Assembly: GCA_964566035.1 (NCBI GenBank)
Contig: CAZMHH010000002.1
Coordinates: 64,013-128,012, forward strand
Origin: an uncultured Thermodesulfobacteriota bacterium
GTDB taxonomy: Bacteria; Desulfobacterota; WTBG01; CAIYCZ01; CAIRTM01
DNA length: 64,000 nt
Reading direction: 5' to 3'
Of this stretch, positions 35,426 through 58,622 are shown one piece after another. The translations under genes were made by a program, and so were the position numbers. Every line of letters starts with the position of its first letter. Position 1 is the stretch's first letter. The notes beneath the pieces are model-generated. The model made no database searches, had not been told where the DNA came from, and saw only the letters and a program-made list of their open reading frames with translations.

Positions 35426-35832
35426 TTAAGTTTATTCTTTGGTTAAGTGGTTTTTAATTTAAAATTTTATCATATAAATGTGAATAATTTCAATAGTAAT
35501 TTAAAAGACAGCAATTGAGCTAAAGCCTGGTAACACAAAGAAGATCTTCTGATAAGTAAAAACAAAATTATAACAAGGCTTAAACCAGAAATGCCGGGTG
35601 CGGGGTTTATCTTTTAGCCTGGTTGTTGTGTTTACTTTATCTATATATATTATTTTTCTTTGTTTTTCTTATCTTATCAGAGGATAATTAAGGCAAACAT
35701 TATGCCAGTTAGCCCTTCAAAAAAAAGGGGATAATTATCTAAAAAAACAACAGTTTTGTATATGCGGGGTGATTCGGCAAGTGACAGTTTGTCAAAACAG
35801 TAAAAATATGGAATACGTTTGCCAAAAAAGGG

Positions 35833-39710: not shown

Positions 39711-41687
39711 TTATTGTCTGTTCTTTACAAGGTCATCAACTACCGCCGGTTCTGCAAGTGTAGTAGTATCTCCAAGATCATCTATCTGGCCTGCAGCCAC
39801 CTTCTTAAGAATTCGTCTCATTATCTTACCGCTTCTTGTCTTGGGAAGACCGTCAGCCCACTGAATCTTGTCCGGTGTTGCAATAGGACCGATTTCCTTG
39901 CGAACATGGGTGACGAGCTCTTTCTTAAGTTCGTCAGATTTTTCAACTCCAACATTAAGGGTTACAAAAGCATAGATTCCTTCTCCCTTAATATCATGAG
40001 GAAATCCAACCACTGCTGATTCAGCAACTTTTGGATGCGCTACAAGAGCACTTTCAACTTCCGCTGTTCCCATACGGTGACCGGAAACATTTATAACATC
40101 ATCAAGACGCCCCATTAGGAAGTAATCACCGTCAGCATCTTTTCTTGCACCATCACCTGTGTAGTATCTGCCTTTAAACTGCGTGAAATATGTATCTACA
40201 AATCTCTGATGATCTCCAAACACGGTTCTCATCATGCCCGGCCATGGTTTTGTAATTGTAAGATAGCCTCCTTCATTTACATCTGCAGGTTCGCCGTTTT
40301 CACGAACTATCTCAGGGGCTATGCCAAAGAAAGGCCTGTTTGCTGAACCCGGTTTAATCTTCATGGCTCCGGGTATTGGGGTAATAAGAAATCCTCCCGT
40401 CTCAGTCTGCCAGTAGGTGTCTACAATCGGGCATCTTCCACCGCCAACCTTGTTGTAGTACCACATCCATGCTTCGGGGTTTATAGGTTCGCCCACTGTT
40501 CCAAGGATTCTTAAGCTGCTCAGATCAATTCCTTCTAACCACTTGTCGCCCTGAGCTGCAACAGCGCGGATAGCAGTAGGTGCTGTATAGAACTGGTTTA
40601 CCTTGTATTTCTCTACAATTTGCCAGAATCTTGAATAGTCAGGATAACTTGGAACACCTTCAAACATGACACTTGCAGCTCCGTTTGAAAGCGGACCATA
40701 TACAATATAGCTGTGTCCTGTAACCCATCCGATATCAGCTGTACACCAGAATGTATCTTCTTCTTTCAGGTCAAAGACATACTTCAATGTTGTTGTAACA
40801 TAAAGAAGATATCCAGCTGTTGTATGAAGGGCTCCTTTGGGTTTACCGGTACTTCCTGATGTGTAAAGAATGAAGAGCGGGTCCTCTGCATCCATCTGTT
40901 CTGGTTCACAGTAAGCCTTCAACCCTTTTGCGTTCATCTCATCGTGCCACCATACATCTCTTCCTTCCTTCATTGAAACATCTGCACCTGTTCTTTTTAC
41001 AATTATGTTTGTCTCAATGCTCGGGCATGTCTCAAGGGCTGCATCGGCATTTTTCTTCAAGGGAACAACTTTTCCGCTTCTGTAAGAAGCATCACTGGTG
41101 ATTAACGCCTTTGCTTCGCAGTCCTGGATTCTGTCTCTGAGGGCATCTGAACTGAATCCGCCGAAAACTATACTGTGAACAGCTCCAATTCTTGTGCACG
41201 CAAGCATTGCAATGGGAAGCTCAGGGATCATTGGAAGATAGATCGCCACACGGTCGCCTTTCTTAACGCCTTTATTTTTAAGCACGTTTGCAAACTTGTT
41301 TACTTCGTGGTAGAGCTCAATATAGGTGTATGTCCGGGCATCATCAACCGGTTCACCCTGCCACATAAGGGCAGCCTTGTTTTTCCTTTCTGTCTTAATA
41401 TGTCTGTCAAGGCAGTTGTATGAAACATTAAGCTTTGCTCCCTTAAACCATGCTATATTTGCTTCAACCATGTCGGCTTCCAGAATCTTGTCTGCTTTTT
41501 TAAAGAACTCAATATGTTCATCCGCCATATCACTCCAGAATCCTTCAGGATCTTCGATTGAGCGTTTATACATCTTCTCATACTGGTCCATGCTGTTGAT
41601 GTGGGCTTTTTCTGCCAGTTCTTTGGGAATATCAAAGACTTTTCCCATACTCGCAAGCGATGTCATTGATTTTTTCTCTTCTGCCAT
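39711..41687 (-). CDS. acs: Acetyl-CoA synthetase (AMP-forming)
   Basis: 658 aa. AMP-binding signature [11 protein letters not shown], motifs [11 protein letters not shown] and the C-terminal ..[11 protein letters not shown], and the overall Acs length and N-terminus. Confidence 0.95.
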
Positions 41688-42352
41688 TCTTTCCTCCTTA
41701 AACTCTATTTAGTTGTAGAATTATTGTTTTGCCTTTTTTAAAAAGGCTTTATAAAATGTATATGTAAAATATTTTTGACACAGCAGTTTTTATGCCAAAG
41801 GTTATTTACGGGGCTTAATGTGGTGTTAATGAGAATCTATAATATTAAATTAAGTCAATATGGTTGTCAATAAAAAAATAAAAACAATTGGTTTTGACAT
41901 TATGTCATAGTGGTTTAGGTTTATATAATTAATTCAAATAACATTTAAATAGCTATACTTTAGCAAACAGTTGTTTTTATATAATTCCGTTAGTAAGTAT
42001 ATTGTATGTCAACATGACAATAGAGAGCAGAAGGAAAAAGCATTCAAAAGCAAAGATTAATAGACAAAAGGTCGAATATCTGTTAGTTTTGCAATTACAA
42101 AAATCAATATATTAACAGATTAAAAACTCTTGAGGTTTATGGCTCTGTTTTTGCAAATATTATATTATGCTGCAGTTAGCAGTGAAGCAGAAAGTGAGTG
42201 GATGAGTTAAAACACAGGGGGTAAGTTACAGGATAAAACTGAAACCATAAATAATTAATCTTTAATAATTTTTTGCTTTTGCTTAACAGTTCTTACCTGT
42301 TATCATGCTTTTGCTGCCAACTACGAACAAAATTCTAGTACAAAGGATTTTC

Positions 42353-43801
42353 ATGGAACAAAAAGATACCACAAGCTCTTTTCTCCACCCTCTTGAGGAG
42401 TCTGTTCTCTCTCTTGCCACAGGAAAAGTTGACCAGCCACAAGAGTTGTCGGAGACATTTTTCAAAGAAACTGCTGAAGAAGAGCCTGACAGACCATATA
42501 CACTGCAAACTGACAAAATTCACACAATTTCAGAAAACATTAATGAATGTATGAGATTTGTCGGAAGCAAAGTGCTTGGCAGGAACGAAACCATCAAACA
42601 GACCTTTATTGCCCTGATAACAGGTGAGCACCAGCTTTTTATAAGCAGAACCGGAATGGCAAAATCGCTGCTTGCCAGGCAGATATTTTCCTGCTTTGAT
42701 GGTGCTCAGGTTTTTGAAAAACAGCTTACAAAAGATACTATGCCAGAGAACCTTTTCGGCGCCTATGATATCGAAGCAATGAAAAAGGGAAAGATGATTC
42801 ACAATGTGGAAGGTTCGCTTGTTCTTTCACACTTTGCTTTTCTTGATGAAATATTTGATGCAAATGATATGCTTCTCAGGTCTCTTCTTTCACTTCTAAA
42901 CGAAAAACAGCTTGTAAACGGTGAACAGATTGTTTACTCAACCCTTCACAGCTCTATTGCAGCGGCAAACTATATAAGGGTTACAGAGATACTCGAGGCT
43001 GTTATTGACAGGTTTCTCTATAAAAGTTATATACCTGAAAACAAGGAGCTGTTTTTTCAGTATTCGATTGACCAGATTTATCAGGAACAGTTCGGAAAGG
43101 TTTATGTTCCTGATAAGCGTTTAACATTGGGAGAGCTTGCTCTGATTAAAAAAGTTATTCAGAGCAAGCAGATAGAAATACCTGGATATGTTCTTTTTCT
43201 CAAGAATTATGCTGTAAAAAGGTATATAGAAGAGACAAGAAGCACTGTATCAGATAAAAAGGCATTTACCATAAGTGACAGGACGAGCGTAAAAAGTCAG
43301 GACACACTAAGAGCTTCAGCAATACTTGACGGAAGACTCAATGTTGATGAGAAAGACCTTGACAGTCTTATATATATTCTCTGTACAATTGGAAGAGAGG
43401 ATGAAAAGACAAGGCTAAACAAGATAATAGGTGCTGCCAAAAACTATTTCAGACAGGATAAAGCCCTTCTTGAAAGTTGTTTTGATGCAATAGCTGTTTT
43501 AAATATTATCAAAGCTTCCAGGACAAACAGGTCTTTAAAGTCAGATACGGGTTTCAAGCAGGTTATCAAAAGACTTGAATGTTTTCATAAAAAAGAAGGT
43601 TCTGTTTTAAAAGAATATTTCAGCAGACTTAAAAACACCCTTATGGGTTTTTCAAAAGACACATTCCTTCCTGAAACATTTTCATTGCTTGAAAATATAA
43701 GCGAAGTTGCCTTAAAAAATGCCAAGTCAAAGGAGACAAGGGAACTTATCTCTGGTTTCAGGGAAGAAGTTTTTTACGAAAAAAAGCTTATGAAAATTTA
43801 A
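42353..43801 (+). CDS. RavA-like MoxR-family AAA+ ATPase
   Basis: Start set at the ATG at 42353 (an AAGGA Shine-Dalgarno 8 nt upstream) rather than the track start at 42305. Walker A ITGEHQLFISRTGMAKSLLARQI and Walker B AFLDEIFDANDMLLRSLLSLLNEKQLVNG follow the RavA pattern G..FLLGPPGIAKSL.AR / FLDEIWKA...LL..INER.F.NG. Confidence 0.75.
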   Translation: MEQKDTTSSFLHPLEESVLSLATGKVDQPQELSETFFKETAEEEPDRPYTLQTDKIHTISENINECMRFVGSKVLGRNETIKQTFIALITGEHQLFISRTGMAKSLLARQIFSCFDGAQVFEKQLTKDTMPENLFGAYDIEAMKKGKMIHNVEGSLVLSHFAFLDEIFDANDMLLRSLLSLLNEKQLVNGEQIVYSTLHSSIAAANYIRVTEILEAVIDRFLYKSYIPENKELFFQYSIDQIYQEQFGKVYVPDKRLTLGELALIKKVIQSKQIEIPGYVLFLKNYAVKRYIEETRSTVSDKKAFTISDRTSVKSQDTLRASAILDGRLNVDEKDLDSLIYILCTIGREDEKTRLNKIIGAAKNYFRQDKALLESCFDAIAVLNIIKASRTNRSLKSDTGFKQVIKRLECFHKKEGSVLKEYFSRLKNTLMGFSKDTFLPETFSLLENISEVALKNAKSKETRELISGFREEVFYEKKLMKI

Positions 43802-43807: not shown

Positions 43808-45382
43808 ATGCATACCTCGTCAATTCAGTCACACCTTGATTTTTATTCCCCTCGCTGCACAGCGGATAGCCCCGGATCTCTGCTTTTTACACCTGAGCTT
43901 ATGAAAATATTCTACATAGCCAGGGTAATAATGAGTGAAACAAGCAGTCACAGAGTAAAAACCCAGGTAGCCCCGCTTTTTAACAGAGAAAAGATATTTG
44001 AAGCAAGGGATGATAAGCCTGAAAAAAAACCCCCTTTTTTAAAAAAAAACAGTTTTGACAATTTCATAAACATAGAACGGATAAACTCTTTTGGGGATAT
44101 AGCAAGGCTTCTTCCAAGAGAACATTTAATCTATTCTGAAACAGTCTTTTATAAAAAACTTGCCAACCGTGAACTCATAAAAATCAGTTATGAAGGTTTT
44201 GCCGGAGATGTAACCTCTGTTGACAGTTTTGTTAACACAATGGAAACAGAGCTTGAAAGAAGCCAGAAGGTATATCTTCTTTATGACAACTCCACTTCGA
44301 TGAACGGAGAAGATTTTAAGAAGCTTTTCATCTCAAAATCAATAGCAATAGAATATTTAAGACGTGTTTCAGGAGAAAACCCGCAAATATACTTCCGCAC
44401 ATTCCACAGTGAAGTGGGCAATCTTGTAAAAGCAAGCACAAAGGAGGAGGTCTACAGTCTTACAGATACCATAGTAAGGATTACAACCGGGGGGGGCAGG
44501 ATAACCAGAATCGGAGACGCGGTCATGCAGGCTATTGAAGACATAAAAAGCGACCCTGATCTTGAAGATGCTGAAATACTGGTGATAACCGATGGTTTTG
44601 GTCCTATACCAAAAGATCTCAAGGAAAGACTTGGCAGGATTAAATTGCATATAATACTAATCCCCGACCTTGATATTGAAAAAATACTAAAACTTTATCC
44701 TGACAGGACAGCATGGGAAAGAGGAGGAAATGATGGAAACAGGCCCATGCCCCAGTTCTGGAAATACTACAGTTCAAATCCGCCGCCTGCTGTTATTGAC
44801 GGTGATGATCTTTTTCAGGATAATAAACGTTCTTACAGGACAGCATCAAAAAGCGTTAAGGAGCTTAAAGCACTTGAAATACTTCAGGGTTTAAATCAGA
44901 TATATCTTCTTCAGGAAGTTTGTGAAAATTTTATCTTTGTTGTTATAACATCCCTGATGGATGAACATTTTGAAATATCCGTTAATGATGTTGGGGGTTT
45001 TGAGAGTTTTGTTGAAGAACTGAAAATAAGGCTAAATGATCCAATGACAAACGAGGAAAAACTGAAATTTCTTCAGACCGTCAACTTTCTGCTCAATTTT
45101 TTTCAGATAGCCATGGTTAATTCACAGGAGAAGGAAACAAAGAAAAGAATAAAAAAACTTATCTCCGCTCTTGAACTCCTGCAGTCATCCATACTTGAGG
45201 ATCCCTGGCTTCAGTCAGTCTTAAAGGCTGACAACATAAAAATGGAGATAAAACTGAGCAGTGCGCTGAAACAGACCAAAAAAGAAGATATGCCGCTTTT
45301 TGAAGCGCTTTTCTATCTGATGAAGATTTTATGGCAGAATCTATGTTTTTATTTCAAGCGGATAGGTAAACATAAGATATAG
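43808..45382 (+). CDS. von Willebrand factor A (vWA) domain protein, ViaA-like partner of the RavA-like ATPase
   Basis: 524 aa. MIDAS motif YLLYDNSTSMNG (DxSxS) with downstream T and D residues (ITRIGDA...VITDG). Separated from the ATPase gene by only 6 nt. Confidence 0.7.
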   Translation: MHTSSIQSHLDFYSPRCTADSPGSLLFTPELMKIFYIARVIMSETSSHRVKTQVAPLFNREKIFEARDDKPEKKPPFLKKNSFDNFINIERINSFGDIARLLPREHLIYSETVFYKKLANRELIKISYEGFAGDVTSVDSFVNTMETELERSQKVYLLYDNSTSMNGEDFKKLFISKSIAIEYLRRVSGENPQIYFRTFHSEVGNLVKASTKEEVYSLTDTIVRITTGGGRITRIGDAVMQAIEDIKSDPDLEDAEILVITDGFGPIPKDLKERLGRIKLHIILIPDLDIEKILKLYPDRTAWERGGNDGNRPMPQFWKYYSSNPPPAVIDGDDLFQDNKRSYRTASKSVKELKALEILQGLNQIYLLQEVCENFIFVVITSLMDEHFEISVNDVGGFESFVEELKIRLNDPMTNEEKLKFLQTVNFLLNFFQIAMVNSQEKETKKRIKKLISALELLQSSILEDPWLQSVLKADNIKMEIKLSSALKQTKKEDMPLFEALFYLMKILWQNLCFYFKRIGKHKI

Positions 45383-47576: not shown

Positions 47577-48740
47577 ATGTCCTTAAATTTTGAAAAAGAA
47601 CCGCCCGTTTCTGAAAATCAATCCAAGAATAAGTCGGATGTCCTAAAAAAAATATATATTGAGCCCACAAATGCCTGCAACCTTTCATGCAAAACCTGCA
47701 TACGCAATGTATGGGAAGATGAGACAGAAGGCATGATGGACAGAGATATATTTGAGGCTTTAATTTATGGACTTAAAGAATTTCCTGATGTACAGACACT
47801 GGCTTTTGCAGGCTTTGGCGAACCTCTTATGCATCCGGATTTTTCAGAAATGGTCAGAAAAGCAAAATCAAATGGTCTTTGTACAGAGGTAACAACCAAT
47901 GCCATGCTTCTTACCCGGCATCTGGCGCAAAACATTGTTGAGGCTGGCATTGATCAGTTGGTTGTCTCAATTGATGGAACATCGGCAGAAAGTTTCGGCG
48001 ATGTGAGAGAAGGCGCTTCTTTTGAAAAAGTTATTGAAAACGTACGTGAGTTTTCAAGGCTCAGTGAATACGGATCCGGACAACATGCAGTTATAGGAAT
48101 TGAGTTTGTGGCAATGCGCAGCAATATTAATGAACTTCCCGGCCTTCAAAATGTTGCTAAGCAGATAGGCGCAAACTTTATAATTGTAAGCAATGTTCTT
48201 ATCTACTCCCCAGAGCTTCAAAATGAGGCTCTCTACCATATCAAAGCTACTGCCAATAAAGGAAAGGAGACCACCCTCACTCCGCGCTGGATACTCCCAA
48301 AGATTGATTTCAACAATAAAACCCAGGAGCCTCTATCCAAAATCATGCGCACTCAGAAAAATATAAGCTTTCTTGACCATGACCTTGAAGACAGGAACAA
48401 TTACTGTCCATTCATAAATGCCGGGGCTATGGCTGTATCCTGGAAGGGAGATATAAGTCCGTGTCCTGCCCTTCTGCACTCCTACACCTGCTTTGTACCG
48501 GAGAGACAAAAAAAAATACATTCATACCTCTGCGGGAATCTTGCTGAAAAATCCCTGAATGAAATATGGAATGAAAGCAGATATGCTGCTTTTCGTAAAA
48601 GAGTAAGAGAGTTTGACTTTCCTCCATGCACAGACTGCAGCTGTGAGCTTTCAAAAACAAATAAGGAGGACTGTTATGGAAATCCCTTTCCGGTCTGCGG
48701 AGACTGCCTGTGGGCGAGAGGGATAATAAGGTGTGCATGA
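47577..48740 (+). CDS. Radical SAM enzyme with C-terminal SPASM (auxiliary [4Fe-4S]) domain
   Basis: 387 aa. Radical-SAM cluster motif NACNLSCKTC (Cx3Cx2C) and a GFGEPL glycine-rich SAM motif. C-terminal Cys-rich SPASM region (CPFINAG...CPALLHSYTC...CGNL; CTDCSCELS...CYGNPFPVCGDCLWARGIIRC). Confidence 0.85.
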   Translation: MSLNFEKEPPVSENQSKNKSDVLKKIYIEPTNACNLSCKTCIRNVWEDETEGMMDRDIFEALIYGLKEFPDVQTLAFAGFGEPLMHPDFSEMVRKAKSNGLCTEVTTNAMLLTRHLAQNIVEAGIDQLVVSIDGTSAESFGDVREGASFEKVIENVREFSRLSEYGSGQHAVIGIEFVAMRSNINELPGLQNVAKQIGANFIIVSNVLIYSPELQNEALYHIKATANKGKETTLTPRWILPKIDFNNKTQEPLSKIMRTQKNISFLDHDLEDRNNYCPFINAGAMAVSWKGDISPCPALLHSYTCFVPERQKKIHSYLCGNLAEKSLNEIWNESRYAAFRKRVREFDFPPCTDCSCELSKTNKEDCYGNPFPVCGDCLWARGIIRCA

Positions 48741-49453
48741 GTTAGCAAATTAGCTGGTACTAAAAGATGTTTGTGCTGTAGTGTTATCCGCTAAATATGA
48801 CTTGAGTCATTATTAATTATTGATATAACAAAAAGATATTTTCATGACCTTTTATTAAAACCGTGGACAGACAAATTGAGCAGGAAGAAAAGAAAAAATA
48901 TCTATTATAAATATTTGCAATAATTCAAAATAACTTAATTAATAACGGCATAAAAATTATTGCCGCAGTTTTTAGGAATTTGTTTCAGAGAAACAGATAA
49001 TCTTAAATTTAACACCCTCGCCTAAATATTATGACTGTGTTCAAAAAAAAACTTGACATTGGAAATATATTATAATATTTGTGAATATAAGCAGGACAAA
49101 AAGCTTTAGATGTTACGTTCCTGAGTCGGGAGAATATTTAAAACATTAAAGCCGACATTCAGTAGTTTGTAAATCAGTTTCTTCCGTGGTCATATTTTTA
49201 TAATATTATATTTGCAGAGCACTTTATAATAAGAAGGCAAATATAACAGTGACCGGTCTTTATGTTTGTTCTTGAAAATCGAAAAATTGCTTTTGTCTAT
49301 TGCGTCACAGCTTTTTTAAGGCTTTTATCAAAAAAAAATTGTATTTTGTTTTGAGTTATGATAAAAATTAATTTCGCCAGGCAAACATCTTGATTCTTAT
49401 GCTAAAATTGATGGATTATTTTAATTACTTAACTGCGGTTTGCTCTAATTCAA

Positions 49454-50587
49454 ATGACAACAGACACATCAGATAGACTTGCAAGTATTTACAGAGAACA
49501 TTTTTACTCCTGCATCCAGTGCGGAAAATGCACAGGCGGATGCCCTATTTCTGTTGTTTCCCCTCTTTTTAATATCAGACGCCTTCTCTACGAAGCACTG
49601 AACACCAAAGGAGAAGAGATTGCCTACCACAAGGAGATGTTATGGGACTGTAGCACATGCACAACATGTGTTAAACGCTGCCCCAAAGATATAGACCCTG
49701 TTGAGCTGATAGTAAGCATGCGGAGCGTGCTTGTTGAAGATGGTCAACTCCCCCCTAAAATCAGAGACGTTTTAAAAAGCATATCTATCCGCGCAAACCC
49801 CTGGAACATAGGGCAGGAAAAAAGGTCTGAGTGGACAGAAGGTTTGAATATCAAAAACATAGCAGATGCTGAAGTTCTCTACTATGTAGGCTGTACCACC
49901 GCTTTTGATTCAAGACTCCATAAGGTTGCAAAATCTCTTGCAACAGCTCTGCAAAAGGCAGGTGTTAATTTTGGAACCTTTGGCAACGATGAGGTCTGCT
50001 GCGGAAACGAGATAAGACGAATGGGAGATGTATGGTCTTTTGATGCTCTCAAAGAGATGAACATGGAAATGTTCAAAATGTATCCGATTAAACAGATTAT
50101 TACTACCTCGCCTCACTGCTACAATACTTTCAAAAATGAGTATACTGAGCTGGAAATAGATGTCAAACACTACACCCAGGTTGTTGCTGATCTAATCAAG
50201 AATAAACAGCTTAAATTTACAAAAAAATTCGAAAAAACTGTAACCTATCACGATCCCTGTTTTCTTGGACGACAGAATCAGATATTTAAGAAACCGAGGG
50301 CAATACTAAAAAGAGTCCCAGGCATAAAGTTTGTTGAGATGGACAGGTCAAGGGAAAGAGCGCTCTGCTGTGAGGGCGGTGGCGGAAGAATGTGGGTTGA
50401 AGCACATGAAACACAGCAGAGAACTGTAACTATCAGAATACAGGAGGCTATAGATGCAGGTGCGGAGATAATTGCCGTTGCCTGTCCGTTCTGTCTCTTA
50501 ACCCTTGAGGATGAAGTAAAAAAGCAGGGGCTTGAAGACAAAATTCAGGTTCTTGACATAATGGAAATTGTAAATAAGGTTATATAG
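49454..50587 (+). CDS. HdrD-like heterodisulfide-reductase subunit (HdrC-type 2x[4Fe-4S] N-domain fused to HdrB-type 2xCCG domain)
   Basis: 377 aa. Ferredoxin motifs CIQCGKCTGGCP and CSTCTTCVKRCP. CCG domains (VCCGNEIRRMGD, LCCEGGGGRMWVEAHE). Confidence 0.8.
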   Translation: MTTDTSDRLASIYREHFYSCIQCGKCTGGCPISVVSPLFNIRRLLYEALNTKGEEIAYHKEMLWDCSTCTTCVKRCPKDIDPVELIVSMRSVLVEDGQLPPKIRDVLKSISIRANPWNIGQEKRSEWTEGLNIKNIADAEVLYYVGCTTAFDSRLHKVAKSLATALQKAGVNFGTFGNDEVCCGNEIRRMGDVWSFDALKEMNMEMFKMYPIKQIITTSPHCYNTFKNEYTELEIDVKHYTQVVADLIKNKQLKFTKKFEKTVTYHDPCFLGRQNQIFKKPRAILKRVPGIKFVEMDRSRERALCCEGGGGRMWVEAHETQQRTVTIRIQEAIDAGAEIIAVACPFCLLTLEDEVKKQGLEDKIQVLDIMEIVNKVI

Positions 50588-50602
50588 CAGGAATTTTATT
50601 CG

Positions 50603-52576
50603 ATGAGTAAGATAAAAACAGGTGTATATATATGTCACTGCGGTGTAAATATTACATCTACCATTGATATAGACAGGTTGACTCAGTTTGCAGAGGAACT
50701 GCCAAGTGTATCCGTCGCCAAGCAGTATATCTACCTCTGTTCTGATCCCGGTCAGGAACTCTTAAGAAAAGATATTAAAGAGCTTGGACTGAACCGTATT
50801 GTTGTCGCCTCCTGCTCACCTCGTATGCATGAACCCACGTTCAGGAAGGTAATGAGAAGTGCAGGGTTAAACCCTTATTGTCTTGAGATTGCAAATATCA
50901 GGGAACAGTGCAGTTGGGTTCATGAGGATAAAGATAAAGCGACCCGGAAAGCTGAATCAATACTTGCAGCATCAGTTGCAAAAGCCCGTCTGCTTGAGCC
51001 TCTCACAGAAAAGCAGGTGGATGTTACCCCTTCAGCACTTGTAATAGGTGCCGGAATTGCCGGTATTCAGGCAGCCCTTGATATTGCTGATAATGGATTT
51101 AAGGTCTATCTTGTTGAAAAAGAGCCGAGCATCGGGGGACATATGGTACAGCTTGACAAAACCTTTCCAACACTTGACTGTTCAGCCTGCATACTGACCC
51201 CAAAAATGTCTGATGTTGGAAACCATCCAAATATTGAACTCCACTCATACTCCGAAGTAGAGGAAGTAAAAGGTTTCATCGGGAACTTTAAGGTAAAAAT
51301 AAAGAAGAAACCAAGATATATTATTGAAGAAAAATGCAACGCATGCGGGCAATGTGTATCATACTGCCCCGTAGAAATACCCGATCCGTTCAACATGAAT
51401 CTGTCCACAATGAAGTGTCTCTATATTCCTTTTCCTCAGGCAGTGCCTGCAAGCTATGTGATTGATCCTGAACACTGCAGATATACCCTGCGAAGAGAGT
51501 GCAAACAGTGCGAACCGGTCTGCAAGGAACTGAATGCAATTGACCTGAAACAGAAAGAAAAATTTATTGATATAGAGGTTGGTACAATAGTTGTGGCAAC
51601 AGGGTTTGATACCTTTGACCCCAAACTTAAACCAGAGTTTGGATACGGTTATTATCCAAATGTTATAACAGGGCTTGAGTTTGAACGTCTCTCATCAGCC
51701 TCAGGTCCCAATCTTGGAGAGTTGAAAATTCACGGTAAAAAACCAAAAGATGTTGTTTTTATCCAGTGTGTTGGATCAAGGGATAAGACGGTTGGAAATG
51801 AATACTGTTCAAGGGTCTGCTGCATGTATACAGCAAAGCAGGCACACCTTGTCAGGGAAAAAATTCCCGATGCCAATGTGACGGTTTTTTATATGGATGT
51901 CCGGGCATTTGGAAAAGGGTTTGAAGAGTTTTATGACAGAGTAAAACATGAAGGTATTGTATATCGAAGAGGAAATGTTGCTGATGTTTTCAGGAGAAAA
52001 GACCGCCTTGTAGTCCGTGCTGAAGATACGCTTATGAGTCAGCCCGTAGAGGTTGAGGCGGATCTTGTAGTACTTGCGGTTGGAATGGTTCCGGGCAAGG
52101 ACAGTGCCGCTCTTGCAAAAACCCTTAAACTCTCCAATTCTGCAGACAGGTTCTTCCTTGAAGCCCACCCCAAGCTAAGGCCTGTTGATACTGCTACAGA
52201 CGGTGTGTTTGTTGCCGGATGCTGCCAGGGACCCAAGGATATCCCTGACACTGTTGCTCAGGCAAGCGGAGCTGCTGCCAGGGCTTGTATACCGCTTTCA
52301 CAGGGAAAGGTTACAACTGAGGCTATTGTTTCCTTTGTAGATGAGCGGGTATGCCGGGGATGTGCGCTCTGTGTTGATGCATGTCCTTATGAGGCTATTG
52401 AACTTAAAATAATTGACCGTGCGGGAAAACAGGTTCAGGTTGCATGGGTAAACGAGGTTCTCTGCAAAGGATGCGGCACCTGTGTGGCTGCATGTAATTG
52501 CGGAGTTATGCAGCAGAGATCCTTTAATGATCATCAGATACTGTCAATGATAGAAACGCTGAGTGAACAAATATGA
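50603..52576 (+). CDS. hdrA: Heterodisulfide reductase subunit A (FAD-containing, electron-bifurcating HdrA-type)
   Basis: 657 aa. N-terminal Cys cluster (YICHCG...C..C). FAD/Rossmann motif VIGAGIAGIQAALDIADNG. Inserted ferredoxin motif CNACGQCVSYCP. Thioredoxin-reductase-like CSRVCCMY. C-terminal 2x[4Fe-4S] CRGCALCVDACP and CKGCGTCVAAC. Confidence 0.9.
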   Translation: MSKIKTGVYICHCGVNITSTIDIDRLTQFAEELPSVSVAKQYIYLCSDPGQELLRKDIKELGLNRIVVASCSPRMHEPTFRKVMRSAGLNPYCLEIANIREQCSWVHEDKDKATRKAESILAASVAKARLLEPLTEKQVDVTPSALVIGAGIAGIQAALDIADNGFKVYLVEKEPSIGGHMVQLDKTFPTLDCSACILTPKMSDVGNHPNIELHSYSEVEEVKGFIGNFKVKIKKKPRYIIEEKCNACGQCVSYCPVEIPDPFNMNLSTMKCLYIPFPQAVPASYVIDPEHCRYTLRRECKQCEPVCKELNAIDLKQKEKFIDIEVGTIVVATGFDTFDPKLKPEFGYGYYPNVITGLEFERLSSASGPNLGELKIHGKKPKDVVFIQCVGSRDKTVGNEYCSRVCCMYTAKQAHLVREKIPDANVTVFYMDVRAFGKGFEEFYDRVKHEGIVYRRGNVADVFRRKDRLVVRAEDTLMSQPVEVEADLVVLAVGMVPGKDSAALAKTLKLSNSADRFFLEAHPKLRPVDTATDGVFVAGCCQGPKDIPDTVAQASGAAARACIPLSQGKVTTEAIVSFVDERVCRGCALCVDACPYEAIELKIIDRAGKQVQVAWVNEVLCKGCGTCVAACNCGVMQQRSFNDHQILSMIETLSEQI

Positions 52577-52995
52577 GCACATTTGAACCAAACATTATAG
52601 CCTTTCTTTGTAACTGGTGTTCTTATGCCGGGGCGGATTTAACAGGCACAAGCCGCATACATTATCCCTCTAACCTTAAAGTAATTAGGGTGATGTGCAC
52701 TGGAAGACTAAATCCTCTTTTTGTGGTACAGTCTCTCAGGCAGGGAGCAGACGGTGTTCTTATTTCAGGGTGTCACCCCGGAGAATGTCATTACATGAAA
52801 GGCAATTATCTTGCAAGGAGAAGGTTTATACTTATGCGAAAACTCCTTGAGTTTGTAGGGATAGACCCGTTAAGACTTCGGATGAGCTGGGTGTCCGCCT
52901 CTGAAGGCAAGAAGTTTGCCGACGTTGTAACAACTGTTACTGAAGACATAAGAAAAATTGGACCAATGCCTTCTTTTATTAGAGATGTAAAATGA
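52573..52995 (+). CDS. MvhD-like [2Fe-2S] protein (methyl-viologen-reducing hydrogenase delta subunit homologue; FlxD-type)
   Basis: 140 aa. Begins ..IIAFLCNWCSYAGADLTG, the MvhD signature, with further Cys (CTGR...GCHPGECHY). Overlaps the hdrA stop (ATGA). Confidence 0.85.
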   Translation: MSTFEPNIIAFLCNWCSYAGADLTGTSRIHYPSNLKVIRVMCTGRLNPLFVVQSLRQGADGVLISGCHPGECHYMKGNYLARRRFILMRKLLEFVGIDPLRLRMSWVSASEGKKFADVVTTVTEDIRKIGPMPSFIRDVK

Positions 52996-53963
52996 ATATT
53001 CAAAAAATAAGGGAAGAAGCCCTCAAAGCAATAAGTGATAAGGATGTAAAATACCTTATAGGCTATAAACAGGGGAGTTACGGATTCAGGATATCCCCGG
53101 TATTTATCAGAAACAAGGATGAAGTGGAAAGCCTTGTTTTCAATCCGCTCTGCCAGTTGGGACTTGTAACATATCTTACAAAGGATGAGGTAATCCCGAT
53201 TGTTGATGAGGCAAAAAAGCATGCTTCAAAAATTGCCATACTTGTAAGAGGATGTGACTCAAGGGCGATAAATCAACTGGTTGCAGAAAAGGGGATACCA
53301 AGAGAAAGTCTCTATATTATCGGAATTCCATGCACAGGCGTGATAGAACTTAAGAAAATTGAGAACAAATTCCCGGGTGTATCATCAAATGCGGATGTTA
53401 AAGAAGAGGGTGATAATTACATTATTACGGTTGACGATCAAACCCATACTGTGCCGAAACAGGAACTGCTGGCGGAACTTTGCAAGACCTGTCCCCATCC
53501 CAGTCCTCTTAGTTATGACAAGCTTGCTGGAGATGAAATAAAATCCAAAACAGATACTTTTGAAGACATAAAGCTCTGGGAAGAAAAACCTGCTGAAGAG
53601 AGATTTGACTTCTGGCTGAATCAGTTTGACCGATGCATAAGATGTTATGCATGCAGGAATGCCTGTCCTCTCTGTTACTCTATTGTCTGTACACTGGAAG
53701 ACACTCAGTGGGTAAAACGCTCAAGCACAACTTCTGAGAATTTTATGTTTCATATGACCGCCGCCTTTCATCTTGCAGGAAGGTGTATAAACTGCGGGGA
53801 GTGTGAGCGGGTATGCCCTATGGAACTTCCCATTATGAAACTCAACCGCAAACTTGAAAAAGATGCGCGAGAGCTGTTCGGACATGAATCAGGCAAGACT
53901 GCTGATACAAAAACCCCCCTTACAAGCTTTGAATTAGAAGACAAAGAAGATTTTATATTGTAA
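52992..53963 (+). CDS. Iron-sulfur protein with two [4Fe-4S] ferredoxin motifs (FlxC-like)
   Basis: 323 aa. Motifs CIRCYACRNACPLCYS and CINCGECERVCP in the C-terminal half. Overlaps the preceding stop (ATGA). Assignment is by context. Confidence 0.55.
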   Translation: MNIQKIREEALKAISDKDVKYLIGYKQGSYGFRISPVFIRNKDEVESLVFNPLCQLGLVTYLTKDEVIPIVDEAKKHASKIAILVRGCDSRAINQLVAEKGIPRESLYIIGIPCTGVIELKKIENKFPGVSSNADVKEEGDNYIITVDDQTHTVPKQELLAELCKTCPHPSPLSYDKLAGDEIKSKTDTFEDIKLWEEKPAEERFDFWLNQFDRCIRCYACRNACPLCYSIVCTLEDTQWVKRSSTTSENFMFHMTAAFHLAGRCINCGECERVCPMELPIMKLNRKLEKDARELFGHESGKTADTKTPLTSFELEDKEDFIL

Positions 53964-54097
53964 AATAAGTCTATGGATGATTGGCTATAGCAGAAAAACC
54001 GGGGGTATGGACCAGCAGTCAGGGGGAGAAGAAAAACAGGCTAAAGCAATAAGCTGATAGCTTTTCGTATTTTATCTATTTTAGGTATTCAATATTT

Positions 54098-55120
54098 ATG
54101 AAATCGTATTTACTCCACCAGGATAAGTTAGGCGACTTCTTAAAAACGCTTGATGAATACAGGGTTTTTGCACCTGTTAAAAGAGACACTGTCACCGTGC
54201 TCCAGGTTTACCAAAACCCTCAGGATACACCTCTTGACCTCGCATCTCAGCCTCAGATTACAAAGAAAAGCATTTTCCCCCATACAGAGGAACTTTTCAA
54301 GTTTGACAAAGGAGCAGCTATAGCAGATTCATCCAAGAGCCTTTTATCAAATAAGACAGTTGTATTTGGAATAAGACCCTGTGATGCTGTAAGTTTTCTT
54401 ACAATTGATCCTGTGTTTGACAATGATTTTCCTGACCCCTACTATATAAACCGCAGAAAGAGCACAATATTAATTGCCCTTGCCTGCAACAAGTCTTTTG
54501 CAAACTGTTTCTGTACATCATTGGGCAAGAGCCCTTTTTCAACTGAAGGTGTCGATGTTTTATTTGTGGACTTGGGCAGCAAATTTCTGGTGGAACCGGT
54601 TTCAGAAAAAGCTGAAGATATAATAAAAAAAACATCGTCGATTCTTGAACCTGCAACAGATGAAGATATTGAAGAGAAACAGAGAATAGCTGAGTCTGCA
54701 TCAAAATCTGTCAAACGGAGCATTGATCTTAAAGGTATGCCAGAGAAACTCTCAGAACTTTTTGAGCATCCTGTCTGGAAGGAGCTTTCCTCAAAATGTA
54801 CTGGATGCGGAATCTGTACATATACCTGCCCGACCTGCTACTGTTTTGACATACAGGATGAAGCTGCAATGCACAACAGGGGGAGAAGGGTAAGGATATG
54901 GGATTCATGCATGTATGATGAATATACCCGCCATGCTTCAGGACACAATCCAAGGCCAACAAGAACAGAAAGACTTAAAAACAGAATATACCACAAGTTT
55001 AAATACCATGTGGATAACGTGGGCATGTTCGGGTGTGTCGGGTGTGGCAGATGCATCTCATTGTGCCCGTTTAATGTAGATCTTATTGAAACACTCACAG
55101 CGGTAAAGAGTATTGCATGA
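54098..55120 (+). CDS. Iron-sulfur subunit, sulfhydrogenase-beta / AsrA-like (FlxB-like)
   Basis: 340 aa. C-terminal motifs CTGCGICTYTCPTCYC and CVGCGRCISLCP. Overlaps the next gene by 4 nt. Confidence 0.6.
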   Translation: MKSYLLHQDKLGDFLKTLDEYRVFAPVKRDTVTVLQVYQNPQDTPLDLASQPQITKKSIFPHTEELFKFDKGAAIADSSKSLLSNKTVVFGIRPCDAVSFLTIDPVFDNDFPDPYYINRRKSTILIALACNKSFANCFCTSLGKSPFSTEGVDVLFVDLGSKFLVEPVSEKAEDIIKKTSSILEPATDEDIEEKQRIAESASKSVKRSIDLKGMPEKLSELFEHPVWKELSSKCTGCGICTYTCPTCYCFDIQDEAAMHNRGRRVRIWDSCMYDEYTRHASGHNPRPTRTERLKNRIYHKFKYHVDNVGMFGCVGCGRCISLCPFNVDLIETLTAVKSIA

Positions 55121-55941
55121 AAAACTTCTACATCCCGGAAATAGCAACCGTTACTGATGTCCGCGAGGAAGCCTCCGGGCAGAGACCAATTAAGACCTTC
55201 AGGGTTGAGCTTGCTGATGGTAAGGATTTTAATCAAAAACCTGGGCAGTGTGCCATGATAGGGGTTCTTGGCATTGGCGAAAGTATGATATCAATTGCAT
55301 CATCTCCTACAAAAAAAGGTTATCTTGAGTTCAGTATCATGAAGCTCGGCAAGGTGACTTCTGCTTTTCATGCTCTTGAACCGGGTGATGCCATAACAAT
55401 AAGGGGTCCTTATGGCAACGGATTTCCGTTAGAAGAGTGGAAGGGTAAAAACATAGTTACAGTGGGGGGTGGAATAGGTCAAGCACCGCTCCGTCCCATT
55501 ATACAGTATATCCTTGATAACAGAGCCGACTTTGGGACTCTTGATGTAATCTATGGAGCCAGAAGTTCAAATGATTTATGTTTTAAGCATGAGCTTTTTG
55601 ATCTTGAAAAAAGCCCTGGCTTGAATGTTCATCTTTCAATAGATGCTGCCGAGCCTGAATGGACACGGTTTGTAGGATTCGTGCCTTCAAATCTTCTCAA
55701 TGTTAAACCGAAGCCTGAAAACACTTTAGCTGTTACCTGCGGACCAGGGGTCATGATAAAATATGTAATAAAAAACTTTATTGAACTTGGTTTTGCAGAT
55801 GATCAGATTTTCACTACACTTGAAAACAGGATGAAATGCGGGGTGGGCATCTGCGGCAGATGTAATGTTACAAACCTTTATGTCTGCAAAGACGGCCCTG
55901 TTTTTAATTACAGCGTGCTGAAAAATCTGTCGGAATACTGA
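55117..55941 (+). CDS. FAD/NAD(P)H-binding oxidoreductase subunit with C-terminal [2Fe-2S] (sulfhydrogenase-gamma / AsrB / PyrK-like; FlxA-like)
   Basis: 274 aa. FAD-binding RxYS-like segment, NAD-binding GGGIGQAPL, and C-terminal CGVGICGRC. Confidence 0.75.
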   Translation: MKNFYIPEIATVTDVREEASGQRPIKTFRVELADGKDFNQKPGQCAMIGVLGIGESMISIASSPTKKGYLEFSIMKLGKVTSAFHALEPGDAITIRGPYGNGFPLEEWKGKNIVTVGGGIGQAPLRPIIQYILDNRADFGTLDVIYGARSSNDLCFKHELFDLEKSPGLNVHLSIDAAEPEWTRFVGFVPSNLLNVKPKPENTLAVTCGPGVMIKYVIKNFIELGFADDQIFTTLENRMKCGVGICGRCNVTNLYVCKDGPVFNYSVLKNLSEY

Positions 55942-56158
55942 AATAGCAATTTAGCTTGTAGCTGATAGTTTGCAGTAAATCCTTTTTTCCCGGTCGTGAT
56001 TGTAGTTATAGTCAAGGCTGTGCTCAGCAGTCAGATATCAGAATAGAAAAAGCATTTGTAAGTGTTAGTGTAAAAAGGCTTTTAATATTTTACTACGGGC
56101 TTAATTGCTATTTTTTTTATTCACCTTTTAATTTTGTATTAAGAAAGGAGGAACTCTT

Positions 56159-57988
56159 ATGAACGGATGGGCGGGAAAAATCTTAAGAGTTGATCTAACA
56201 AACGGGACTTTTAAAGATGAAGATTTAGATTTAGAACTTGCAAAAAACTATGTGGGGGGAAGAGGGCTTGCAACAAAGATGCTCTTTGATGAGATAGACC
56301 CTAAAATTGATGCTTTGAGTCCGGAAAATAAACTTATTTTTGCATCTGGTCCCTTAACAGGTACAGGCGCTATTGCAGCGTCACGTTATATGGTAATAAC
56401 CAAATCGCCTCTGACCGGCTACATTGCCTGTTCAAACTCCGGTGGTTATTTCGGACCTGAGATGAAATACGCAGGCTATGACATGTTTATATTTGAAGGA
56501 AAATCTCCCGAGCCTGTATATCTCTTCATAGCCGGCGATACCATCGAGCTAAGACCGGCAACAGAGCTCTGGGGCAAGACCACGCATGAAACAGAAGATG
56601 CAATTCGTGAAACTATCGGAATGCCCTGGAAGGGTGAAATGTTTAGAATTGCAAGCATTGGCCCTGCAGGAGAAAAACTTTCCCGTGCAGCCTGTATTAT
56701 TAATGATAAGGCACGGGCTGCGGGCAGATCTGGGGTTGGAGCTGTGATGGGCTCCAAGAATTTAAAAGCAATAGCAATAAAGGGCTCAAAACCTATAAAT
56801 ATTGCCCAACATGAAAGATTCAGGGAAATTGTCCGTGAAAACATTCAGAAAAACCGCTCTGATGCTGCAAAGGTAACAGCTCAGGCGCTTCCTGTATTTG
56901 GCACCTCAATACTTGTAAACATAATAAATGAAAGCGGAATACTGTGTACCAGAAACTTTCAGGCAGGCACGTTTGAAGGAGCAGGTAAAATAAGCGGTGA
57001 GACAATTGTGGATACAATCCTTAGAAGAAGAAGGGGATGTTTTTCATGTCCCATGTCCTGCGGAAGGGTTACAGAATCAATAGACCCCAAATTTCCAGGG
57101 CATGGAGAGGGGCCGGAGTATGAGACTGTTGCACTTTTTGGAGCTTCATGCGGTGTTGATAACCTGTCTGCTGTTGCAAAGGCTAACTTTATATGTAACG
57201 AACTTGGTATTGATACAATTGAGGCTGGAAATATTGTTGCCTGTGCTATGGAACTCTATGAAAAGGGTTATCTGCCTGAGTCAGATATTGGTTTCAAGGC
57301 AAACTTCGGGGATGCAGAAGCACTCGTAAAACTGACTGAGTTGATGGGTAAAAGAGAGGGCATTGGCGATCTGCTTTCTGAAGGCGGCCATGCCCTGGCA
57401 GAAAAATATGGACATCCGGAGCTATTTATGGGTGTAAAAAATCAAGGGCTCCCGGCTTATGATCCAAGAGGTGTTCAGGGCATGGGATTGAGTTATGCAA
57501 CATCAAACAGAGGCGCCTGTCATGTGAGAAGCTATCTTATTGCTATTGAAATACTCGGGGTAAATGTTAAGGTTGATCCTTTTACAACAGAAAACAAAGC
57601 ATCTCTGTTAAGAAATTTCCAGGATTTTACAGCAGTGATTGACTCCGCGGGGCTTTGTCTATTTGTAAGCCTTGCAGAAGGTTATGGTCAGGATGATGTT
57701 GCCGAGCTTCTTACCGCTGTAACCGGAGAGACCTATACAAAAGATGATGTTATGGCAATAGGTGAGAGAATCTGGACTCTTGAACGTCTCTTCAATATAA
57801 AAGCCGGCCTTACCAAGGCGGAAGACACTCTTCCCCCAAGGTTTCTATCAGAGCCCCTGCCTGATGGACCTGCAAAGGGTAAGGTATGTAAGCTTGAAGA
57901 GATGCTTAAAGAATACTATCAGCTCAGGGGATGGGATGACAATGGCATTCCGCCTGCTGATAAATTGTCACAGATAGGTTTGAACTGA
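56159..57988 (+). CDS. aor: Aldehyde:ferredoxin oxidoreductase (tungsten/molybdopterin AOR family)
   Basis: 609 aa. N-terminus MNGWAGKILRVDLTNG is the classic AOR start. [4Fe-4S] motif CFSCPMSCGR. Large C-terminal pterin-binding domains. Strong RBS AAAGGAGG. Confidence 0.9.
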   Translation: MNGWAGKILRVDLTNGTFKDEDLDLELAKNYVGGRGLATKMLFDEIDPKIDALSPENKLIFASGPLTGTGAIAASRYMVITKSPLTGYIACSNSGGYFGPEMKYAGYDMFIFEGKSPEPVYLFIAGDTIELRPATELWGKTTHETEDAIRETIGMPWKGEMFRIASIGPAGEKLSRAACIINDKARAAGRSGVGAVMGSKNLKAIAIKGSKPINIAQHERFREIVRENIQKNRSDAAKVTAQALPVFGTSILVNIINESGILCTRNFQAGTFEGAGKISGETIVDTILRRRRGCFSCPMSCGRVTESIDPKFPGHGEGPEYETVALFGASCGVDNLSAVAKANFICNELGIDTIEAGNIVACAMELYEKGYLPESDIGFKANFGDAEALVKLTELMGKREGIGDLLSEGGHALAEKYGHPELFMGVKNQGLPAYDPRGVQGMGLSYATSNRGACHVRSYLIAIEILGVNVKVDPFTTENKASLLRNFQDFTAVIDSAGLCLFVSLAEGYGQDDVAELLTAVTGETYTKDDVMAIGERIWTLERLFNIKAGLTKAEDTLPPRFLSEPLPDGPAKGKVCKLEEMLKEYYQLRGWDDNGIPPADKLSQIGLN

Positions 57989-58027
57989 AAAAATATTATT
58001 AAACAATAATATGAGGAGGAATCTCTC

Positions 58028-58486
58028 ATGAAAACAATAGTAAAAAAGATACAGATGGATTATGACAAATGCACAGGTTGTCGCCACTGCGAAATTGCAT
58101 GCGCTCTGGCGCACACTGAGACAAGTTCAGTAGACCCCAACCAGTCAAGAATAAAGGTTTTTGTGGATCTGGATTCTGGCTACAGCTTTCCTGTAATTTC
58201 AGGCCCCTATACAGATGCAAAGTGTACATCCAAGAACTACGTCATTATCGGCGGACAGAAATTCAATACATGTATGCTCTGCAGGGTTGCATGTCCTGAA
58301 AAACCCTTCTTCTTTGAGCCAGGATCAGAGGTTCCATTAAAGTGTGATCTCTGCGGTGATCCACCGGATCCTTCATGTGTTAAATGGTGTACAAGCGAAG
58401 CACTCTCTATGATAGAAGTTGAAGAGGACGTTGAAGAGGAAACAGTTGAAGAGACTGATTCCGACTTTGATGATGATGAGGAATAA
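58028..58486 (+). CDS. Polyferredoxin-like [4Fe-4S] electron-transfer protein with acidic C-terminal tail (AOR-associated)
   Basis: 152 aa. Motifs CTGCRHCEIAC, CMLCRVACP and CDLC...C..WC. C-terminal EEDVEEETVEETDSDFDDDEE. RBS GAGGAGG. Confidence 0.75.
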   Translation: MKTIVKKIQMDYDKCTGCRHCEIACALAHTETSSVDPNQSRIKVFVDLDSGYSFPVISGPYTDAKCTSKNYVIIGGQKFNTCMLCRVACPEKPFFFEPGSEVPLKCDLCGDPPDPSCVKWCTSEALSMIEVEEDVEEETVEETDSDFDDDEE

Positions 58487-58510: not shown

Positions 58511-58545
58511 AAAAAAGGCTATGGAATAATCACCATAGCCTTTTG
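58511..58545. terminator. Bidirectional rho-independent terminator between the aor-ferredoxin operon and the convergent BNR-protein gene
   Basis: AAAAAAGGCTATGG-aataatca-CCATAGCCTTTTG. An 8-bp stem (58517-58524 / 58533-58540) flanked by an A-run and a T-run. Confidence 0.7.
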
Positions 58546-58622
58546 TATTAGGTATGTTTATAGAACCTTTTTTTGCTATAATTTAAAGTAATTTGTCATG
58601 TTTTTATCCCGTTTTACTCAAT

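Follow-up and report, generated by a model that had tools for sequence, protein, structure and literature searches.

The 64,000-nucleotide stretch of DNA analysed here (the window) comes from an uncultured Thermodesulfobacteriota bacterium. At positions 49454-58486 it carries eight genes in which a heterodisulfide reductase (Hdr) and Flx module is followed by an aldehyde:ferredoxin oxidoreductase (AOR) and a small Fe-S protein (Fd). Judging from the sequences of their products, we somewhat favour the interpretation that these eight genes encode one multi-subunit tungsten enzyme, which would follow the plan of class II benzoyl-CoA reductase (BCRII) with different catalytic and input modules. 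An open reading frame check placed all eight genes on the + strand, with coordinates exactly as in the initial annotation, and domain assignment of the cluster proteins with Pfam and NCBIfam bore out the inventory proposed there: a fused HdrC-HdrB protein, HdrA, an MvhD-like protein, two Fe-S subunits and an NAD/FAD/[2Fe-2S] subunit, and then an AOR. The order of the genes is reversed relative to flxABCD-hdrABC, as had also been claimed.

The catalytic subunit is predicted to be a genuine AOR sensu stricto, and thus a tungstopterin enzyme. This 609-aa protein (56159-57988, +) matches AFOR_N (2.2e-83) and AFOR_C (2.6e-151), with scores of 709 bits to 9MQX_D, 676 bits to the Pyrococcus furiosus AOR (1AOR) and 628 bits to AorB of Aromatoleum aromaticum (8C0Z). 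It retains the four cysteines of the [4Fe-4S] cluster as well as the equivalents of Glu313 and His448, which we take to have the catalytic roles reported by Chan et al. 1995. We also considered BamB as an identity for this subunit and rejected it, since the score to BamB was 228 bits with partial coverage versus 676-709 bits to true AORs; identity to BamB of genuine bam loci was 28-31%. The genuine bamBCDEFGH clusters used as references throughout were taken from metagenomes with the BamC sequence as query.

The gene following aor (58028-58486, +) encodes a 152-aa protein with 12 cysteines. The initial annotation had placed an AOR and a polyferredoxin after the hdr-flx genes; the AOR stands, but the second protein is better described as a BamC-type connector. 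It matches BamC (4Z3W_E) over its full length with 127 bits, compared with 50 bits to AorA (8C0Z_C), and all 12 cysteines align with those of BamC, corresponding to three [4Fe-4S] clusters, so that assignment as an AorA- or WorS-type small subunit was rejected. The protein is 40-44% identical to BamC of bam loci, its C-terminal tail is acidic, and the 12 cysteines are kept in its orthologues. In the benzoyl-CoA reductase structure, the tungsten subunit is connected through BamC to the HdrA-like subunit at the ferredoxin domain of the latter (preprint 10.64898/2026.04.10.717634).

A second BCRII-like feature is found in the first gene of the cluster (49454-50587, +), whose 377-aa product combines a Fer4 dicluster domain with two CCG domains (Pfam CCG 2.7e-31) and is therefore a true HdrC-HdrB fusion (HdrCB), as had been noted. 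It has two cubane [4Fe-4S] motifs in addition to the CCG domains. Its best solved relative is EtfD of Mycobacterium smegmatis (9OJN, 211 bits), with only 53 bits to HdrC and 22 bits to HdrB, and BamD proteins from genuine bam clusters show 37-41% identity to it. In an alignment, the HdrCB and BamD families both have nine CCG cysteines, whereas the canonical double CCG motif has ten; both also have S-P-H-C in place of C-x-x-C and a tryptophan in the motif GGGR(M/I)W. In the window protein these signature residues are S219-P-H221-C222 and W314, invariant with BamD, and Ser219 occupies the position of the first cysteine of CXXC. The first CCG motif of HdrCB retains CC, where EtfD has C-T, yet loses this first cysteine. 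His230, Trp325 and Tyr356 of BamD correspond to His221, Trp314 and Phe346 of HdrCB (constant four-residue offset, verified on L089, a locus with bam genes). The three BamD residues occupy the heterodisulfide pocket, and the change of cysteine to serine gives a distal [3Fe-4S] cluster (preprint 10.64898/2026.04.10.717634), while the paper on the EtfD structure reports that the equivalent histidine completes the noncubane cluster and renders it non-catalytic. The initial annotation had let the electrons end on DsrC or a disulfide. Because of the SPHC motif and W314, the missing cysteine, the pocket-occluding histidine and tryptophan and the score of 22 bits to HdrB, a DsrC or heterodisulfide substrate is doubtful, and HdrCB is more likely to be an electron-transfer output than a disulfide reductase.

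The second gene encodes HdrA (50603-52576, +; 657 aa), an FAD protein with multiple [4Fe-4S] clusters that matches HdrA of Methanothermococcus thermolithotrophicus (5ODC_A) over its full length with 819 bits. K412 of the window protein aligns with Lys409 of 5ODC, which hydrogen-bonds N5 of the bifurcating FAD (PMC6405883), and the lysine of the bifurcating site is therefore kept. Against the NCBIfam HdrA2 model the protein scores 882 bits, which is under the family cut-off. The next gene (52573-52995, +) encodes a 140-aa MvhD/FlxD-like [2Fe-2S] adaptor (Pfam FlpD 1.1e-53) that shares 35-50% identity with the BamF core. Codon 67 of this gene (52771-52773), which encodes the cysteine of SG-C-HPGEC, is an in-frame TGA in L003, L007, L013, L014, L018 and L019, and gene callers split these mvhD orthologues there. 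This is consistent with a putative selenocysteine/cysteine polymorphism, at a site other than Sec19 of BamF.

The remaining three genes would form the input module. The 274-aa FlxA-like subunit (55117-55941, +) is of the HydG/AsrB type and has FAD_binding_6, NAD_binding_1 and DHODB_Fe-S_bind domains. Its NAD(P)H-binding motif is present (GGGIGQAP; NAD_binding_1 E = 1.5e-12), the FAD domain is intact, and the C-terminal [2Fe-2S] motif reads CX4CX2C...C; its score to the gamma subunit of P. furiosus sulfhydrogenase (9NEZ_C) is 209 bits. The FlxB-like Fe-S subunit (54098-55120, +; 340 aa) is of the HydB/ShyB/AsrA type, with a Fer4_22 match of 8e-34 and NCBIfam scores of 212 bits to ShyB and 160 bits to AsrA, both under cut-off. 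The FlxC-like Fe-S subunit (52992-53963, +; 323 aa) matches Fer4 families and carries two [4Fe-4S] clusters at its C-terminus. It was also considered as a paralogue of FlxB, a proposal that we rejected because the alignment is limited to the Fe-S motifs. The N-terminal domain of FlxC weakly resembles the flavin- and F420-binding family FrhB_FdhB_C, with 18.6 bits in the window; in the orthologue of L086 (16282-17259) the score of 31.2 bits exceeds the Pfam cut-off, and an additional flavin site in this half of the subunit is possible.

The association of these eight genes is widely conserved. In a scan anchored on HdrCB and limited to one genome per species, we obtained about 20 Thermodesulfobacteriota loci (L005-L025) with HdrCB identities of at least 53%. 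All except L022 have the full HdrCB-HdrA-MvhD-FlxC-FlxB-FlxA set wherever the contig permits, and in about 19 of the 20 informative loci an AOR-family gene and fd are adjacent to it. Homologues of the window AOR at 78, 70, 63, 60 and 58% identity each lie beside the same six Hdr/Flx genes and the same small Fe-S gene as well, and the total comes to about 25 loci of uncultured Thermodesulfobacteriota, with unrelated flanks; the nearest public loci all belong to this group. Two gene orders occur among them, hdr..flxA-aor-fd as in the window, and aor-(thiS)-fd-hdr..flxA. If the adjacency of aor-fd and hdr-flx were fortuitous and had no functional meaning, the 217-nt spacer between flxA and aor and the lack of an AOR in one locus, L015, would be easily understood, but recurrence in about 25 loci with different flanks, in both gene orders and with AOR identities down to 57% (40% for a paralogue) would not. 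Because of these synteny data chance adjacency is effectively refuted, and we give it almost no credence.

The catalytic pair has also moved as a unit. Trees of HdrA and HdrCB are congruent, and neighbour-joining indicates that the AOR-Fd pair has been swapped at least two times on closely related Hdr-Flx backbones. In L008, L010 and L011 the AOR is 51-54% identical to that of the window and HdrCB 74-77%, with HdrA at 77-78% in L008 and L011 (the L010 contig stops within hdrCB), and in L018, L019 and L022 the AOR is about 40% identical versus about 70% for HdrA. One metagenome-assembled genome contains two clusters, L007 and L019, with different AOR-family heads. This exchange fits the idea of modular catalytic heads on a common redox driver. 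An AOR of the AorABC type nests among the Hdr-linked AORs in the neighbour-joining tree. A sister AOR (P0073, 61% identity, 600 aa) has partners of the Aromatoleum type, namely a 160-aa polyferredoxin, a Pyr_redox_2 flavoprotein and ThiS, and no Hdr; with these AorA/AorC-type partners, the partner set is therefore clade-specific. Distant HdrCB homologues at about 50% identity, from Anaerolineae and archaea, are found without an AOR in other Hdr-type clusters.

The divergent AOR-family proteins of L018 (11217-12983), L019 (8323-12853) and L022 (10073-12342) mark a second type of Hdr-Flx cluster; they each have their own small Fe-S subunit and score 421 bits to AORs and 144 bits to BamB. In L019 a 642-aa WD40 protein is encoded between the divergent AOR-family gene and flxA, and in L022 FlxB and FlxA were not detectable. 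Such paralogues bear on the further possibility that the tungsten subunit has a substrate other than an aldehyde and reduces an aromatic or other unactivated compound at a potential below that of ferredoxin, as in benzoyl-CoA reductase. The architecture does parallel that of BCRII, in which BamB, a protein of the AOR family, catalyses a reaction that involves no aldehyde, some Hdr-Flx backbones carry AOR-family partners at 40% identity, and an orthologous aor-fd-hdr-flx cluster is present in the benzene-fermenting Desulfobacterota strain ORM2a (L016, CP113000.1, 3,062,869-3,083,999), for which proteomes have been published (PMC13101534). However, the full-length matches of the window AOR to characterised aldehyde-oxidising AORs, its Glu313 and His448 equivalents and its low identity to BamB all speak for aldehyde chemistry. 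A fused EutB-EutC ethanolamine ammonia-lyase gene (13615-15879), which lies after the cluster in L001, likewise suggests acetaldehyde as the substrate, or its supply, in that organism. A non-aldehyde substrate is thus plausible for the divergent AOR-family paralogues and unlikely for the window AOR, and as an account of the system described here we consider it quite improbable.

Homology with Mvh-Hdr, Flx-Hdr and BCRII suggests a scheme for the assembled enzyme, including its electron ports, its high-potential partner and its physiological direction. The Mvh-Hdr complex is reported to use an MvhD-type adaptor as its way in and the HdrA ferredoxin domain and HdrC/B as its exits. BCRII is wired in the same manner, in that an MvhD-type adaptor delivers the mid-potential pair, the HdrA ferredoxin domains serve as the low-potential exit and HdrC/B as the high-potential exit (preprint 10.64898/2026.04.10.717634). 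By this homology the three ports of the window enzyme would be FlxABC-FlxD, Fd-AOR and HdrCB. FlxA, together with FlxB and FlxC, would act as the mid-potential NAD(H) port, and FlxD/MvhD would pass the electrons to the FAD of HdrA, where pairs would be split or merged. The low-potential arm would run from the HdrA ferredoxin domains by way of the BamC-like subunit and its three clusters to the AOR, at whose tungstopterin the acid/aldehyde couple (E0' about -580 mV) would react. The high-potential arm would run through the BamD-like HdrCB to an external partner, more likely a protein carrier such as electron-transfer flavoprotein (ETF), and then menaquinone, than a heterodisulfide; no further acceptor subunit is encoded in the eight-gene cluster. 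The net reversible reaction would be 2 NADH + acid + acceptor(ox) <-> 2 NAD+ + aldehyde + acceptor(red).

If the acceptor lies near 0 mV, as would be the case for ETF, the mean acceptor potential would be about -290 mV versus -320 mV for NADH. Acid reduction driven by NADH would then be slightly exergonic, and reversibility is to be expected. Run backwards, the enzyme would draw on the very low potential of aldehyde oxidation to lift electrons from the high-potential donor to NAD+. We lean slightly towards aldehyde oxidation with confurcation to NADH as the direction, although the architecture would equally allow NADH-driven acid reduction. In the aldehyde to ferredoxin to NAD(H) route of the initial annotation, the link to the AOR stands. 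Since AOR-Fd accompanies Hdr-Flx in both gene orders, however, electrons are more likely to pass between them by direct wiring than by free ferredoxin. ETF is possibly the high-potential partner, which is a guess by homology. It is suggested by the fact that BamD and EtfD both serve ETF, by the identity of 37-40% between the HdrCB family and the soluble part of an ETF:menaquinone oxidoreductase (EMO) encoded elsewhere in the window, and by the EMO-like genes that follow flxA in L006, L011 and L015.

Not all of the evidence can be easily reconciled with a single complex. The same genes could encode two separate, co-regulated enzymes, which is in essence the picture of the initial annotation. 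One would be an NADH dehydrogenase of the Desulfovibrio Flx-Hdr type, with electrons bifurcated between free ferredoxin and a thiol/disulfide carrier such as DsrC, the other an ordinary two-subunit AOR that shares this ferredoxin pool. The domain inventory fits FlxABCD-HdrABC, a variant Hdr/Flox cluster in which an HdrD-like protein replaces HdrBC has already been noted in Syntrophobacter fumaroxidans (PMC5947623), and metabolic clusters often hold enzymes that are functionally linked and physically separate. Several observations weigh against the single complex directly. HdrA is about 60% identical to methanogen HdrA and 43-48% to the N-terminal half of BamE, and is thus closer to a reducer of free ferredoxin than to BamE; it is also a single unit and not the fused double of BamE, and MvhD is of the short form. 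The 217-nt spacer and the strong ribosome-binding site of aor make separate transcription of this gene, or an internal promoter, possible. L015 is one clear exception to the conserved arrangement, with Hdr-Flx genes and no AOR within 10 kb. ETF genes adjoin the cluster in no related locus outside this window, which makes the high-potential partner a guess and led us to reject them as conserved neighbours, and the binding of AOR-Fd to HdrA is proposed by homology.

On the other side, the small subunit is a connector of the BamC type and not of the AorA or WorS type, and HdrCB is one CCG cysteine short and has the BamD/EtfD histidine that makes the cluster non-catalytic, neither of which is explained by two separate enzymes. 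The adjacency of the two parts survives both rearrangement and exchange of AOR paralogues, which is stronger than a loose regulon would predict. No dsrC or adh was seen among the annotated genes of the window or of the related neighbourhoods, some 15 ORFs with 130 aa or more at window positions 1-19700 lying outside the annotation. We consider two separate enzymes a genuine possibility, though a less likely one than the reading of the eight gene products as one complex.

The closest known parallel to such a complex is BCRII of Geobacter metallireducens, Bam[(BC)2DEFGHI]2. Like the window cluster, it has an AOR-family tungsten subunit with a three-cluster small subunit, a fused HdrBC subunit (BamD) with the SPHC motif and pocket-filling histidine and tryptophan, an HdrA-type flavin subunit with the N5 lysine, an MvhD-type adaptor and a separate NADH-binding input module, and its three ports around one bifurcating FAD correspond to those proposed here. 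Unlike in BCRII, the catalytic subunit encoded in the window is a true AOR with about 29% identity to BamB; BamE is a fused double HdrA (1012 aa in L089), whereas the window HdrA is a single protein; and BamF is long, with Sec19 and a winged helix (HTH-like matches in L089), whereas the window MvhD has a cysteine and neither of these features. The BamGHI input is NuoEFG/HydABC-like, and L089 contains 2Fe-2S_thioredx and Complex1_51K genes that are not present in the window cluster, where a HydG/HydB/AsrAB-like FlxABC is found instead. NADH alone, and not NADH together with reduced ferredoxin, is therefore likely to be the mid-potential reactant. ETF genes are also absent from the eight-gene cluster of the window, unlike in BCRII.

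The cluster had originally been equated with FlxABCD-HdrABC, a complex reportedly described from Desulfovibrio vulgaris. In terms of domains and motifs this likeness stands, as FlxA-, FlxB-, FlxC- and FlxD(MvhD)-like subunits and HdrA are present in an NADH-linked bifurcating design, but it does not extend to a canonical HdrB and HdrC, which here are fused and have CCG domains of the BamD/EtfD type. The partners also differ, with an AOR and a BamC-like subunit in place of alcohol dehydrogenases, and a DsrC acceptor is unsupported. The methanogen HdrABC-MvhAGD complex and the Fdh-Hdr-Fmd supercomplex share HdrA and an MvhD adaptor with the window. The supercomplex (7BKB) is reported to pass low-potential electrons from HdrA directly through a polyferredoxin to a tungsten or molybdenum enzyme with a very low-potential reduction, and both Fd and HdrA of the window gave weak matches to 7BKB chains. 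In contrast to these methanogen systems, the window cluster has no hydrogenase or formate dehydrogenase input, no canonical HdrB, and an AOR instead of formylmethanofuran dehydrogenase.

Two other enzymes, AorABC of A. aromaticum and the bifurcating WOR1 (WorLSABC), resemble the window system in having a catalytic subunit of the AOR sensu stricto group and in linking aldehyde and acid to NAD(H). However, AorA has four clusters versus three in the window BamC-like subunit, and the window cluster has no FAD subunit of the AorC/WorN type, there being no Pyr_redox_2 gene. It also lacks the HydABC/Bfu-like WorABC module of WOR1, a Class IV enzyme, since it has no NuoE-, NuoF- or NuoG-like genes. 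EtfD/EMO proteins share with HdrCB the P-H-C motif whose histidine completes a non-catalytic noncubane cluster, but HdrCB has no membrane or haem b domain and would sit in a soluble HdrA complex.

In the literature searched, we found no system in which an AOR sensu stricto is combined with FlxABC, HdrA as a single unit, an MvhD of the short form and BamC- and BamD-like subunits. Earlier descriptions exist of the Flx-Hdr family with its HdrD variant, of BCRII and its wiring, of AorABC and of the Bfu-type WOR1, and what would be new is the combination of their modules in a lineage of uncultured Thermodesulfobacteriota. The five-class scheme of tungsten oxidoreductases (WOR) published in June 2026 has no Hdr/Flx-linked AOR class, and by its gene-context rules the window enzyme would be expected to go to Class II, with WorL and WorS and neither WorN nor WorABC (PMC13328260). 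In the text of a 2025 review of tungsten enzymes the terms 'Hdr' and 'heterodisulfide' do not occur. In the paper on the ORM2a genome, Hdr and 'HydABGD-like' (sulfhydrogenase-like) proteins have separate annotations, and neither 'aldehyde' nor 'AOR' turned up when its text was searched for these terms.

More tentatively, the system could reduce carboxylic acids with NADH and without ATP or, run backwards, oxidise aldehydes with conservation of energy; HdrA would split the electrons of NADH between the AOR, below the potential of ferredoxin and through the BamC-like wire, and ETF and menaquinone, through the BamD-like subunit. If so, it would be the second tungsten enzyme powered by HdrA bifurcation, after BCRII, and a sixth tungsten oxidoreductase architecture with an exchangeable head; this full version of the proposal is possible at best. 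A single complex would mean that the BCRII design is a general modular platform with swappable AOR-family heads and input modules, and would add a Hdr/Flx-linked class to the five-class scheme. It would show how anaerobes near the thermodynamic limit manage the very low-potential acid/aldehyde couple, where either the energy of aldehyde oxidation is saved rather than wasted on NAD+, or unactivated acids are reduced by NADH without ATP. The latter would interest biotechnology as a route from acids to alcohols. A complex of this kind would also caution against labelling every Flx-Hdr cluster a DsrC reductase.

Overlaps of 4 nt are found at hdrA/mvhD, mvhD/flxC and flxB/flxA, with tight translational coupling in hdrA-flxD-flxC and flxB-flxA, and the remaining intergenic gaps are 15, 134, 217 and 39 nt. 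The only strong terminator comes after fd (58513-58549, +), where a 12-bp GC-containing hairpin is followed by UUUUGUAUU and closes the cluster; hairpin and U-run together (58513-58544) fold with -25.8 kcal/mol (z = -4.5), and none of 200 shuffles was as good. The 217-nt spacer between flxA and aor (55942-56158, +) folds with z = -1.8, no significant improvement on shuffled sequences, and has no compact terminator. The corresponding spacers of orthologues with the hdr..flxA-aor-fd order (A-type) are 104-524 nt long. In the window spacer the two arms of a 21-nt inverted repeat (55941-55961 and 56093-56113, 86% complementary) enclose 131 nt, with T8 after the second arm. This may represent either an attenuator with a long stem or what is left of an inserted element. 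Shine-Dalgarno sites of the AGGAGG type precede aor, where the site is strong, and fd, and no obvious ones precede hdrCB and hdrA.

Upstream of hdrCB lies an AT-rich non-coding region of 713 nt (48741-49453), in which we found no Rfam match and no convincing promoter; scans of the region for sigma-70 and terminator consensus sequences gave counts equal to the shuffled expectation. No sigma-54 promoter upstream of hdrCB or aor matched above chance level, and plausible sigma-54-like sites were seen only before etfB (TGGCATAATGTTTGCC, 35692-35707) and before the acetyl-CoA synthetase gene acs (41782-41797). A repeated element, AGCTGATAG, common to the two long spacers was rejected as not significant, the observed count being reached in 11 of 100 shuffles.

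Just upstream of the cluster is a gene for a 387-aa radical SAM/SPASM protein (47577-48740, +; Pfam), whose association with the cluster is weak. Homologues adjoin aor in L003 (15105-16199), L016 (5314-6615), where the gene precedes the cluster, and L017 (4021-5361). The protein may be a maturation factor for the tungsten cofactor or an Fe-S cluster, and it presumably resembles the cmo gene beside aor of P. furiosus. Acetyl-CoA synthetase, which had been listed with the module at a position some 8 kb upstream, is indeed encoded there (39711-41687), but on the strand opposite to the cluster and 7.8 kb away. As none of the related loci has a homologue in the vicinity of the cluster, we rejected it as part of the system.

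Other genes next to related clusters vary from locus to locus. Downstream of flxA in L006 (9648-11693), L011 (19693-20916) and L015 (16700-20129) we found a BPL_N-domain protein and an EMO/DsrMK-like pair, which consists of a NarI-like membrane protein and an HdrD-like protein, fused in L006. L015 in addition has an FAD-dependent oxidoreductase upstream of its Hdr-Flx genes, and in L001 a set of ABC and periplasmic-binding transporter genes (16905-19759), possibly for cobalamin, is present after the cluster.

In the rest of the window, etfB, etfA and a 642-aa membrane protein of the EMO/EtfD type (NarI-like, Fer4 and two CCG domains) are encoded at 31560-35425 on the - strand, 14 kb upstream of the cluster. 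An Rfam scan of the window detected a single tRNA-Leu and nothing else. Three ORFs of 563, 608 and 524 aa (22253-23944, 28673-30499 and 43808-45382) have no Pfam match at the thresholds used, and the last of these comes directly after a MoxR-type AAA ATPase (42305-43801). Besides etfAB and the membrane CCG oxidoreductase, the neighbouring genes include a sigma-54 activator, histidine kinases, a c3-type cytochrome and a V-type ATPase, and this gene content, together with a G+C content of about 40%, indicates an anaerobic bacterium.

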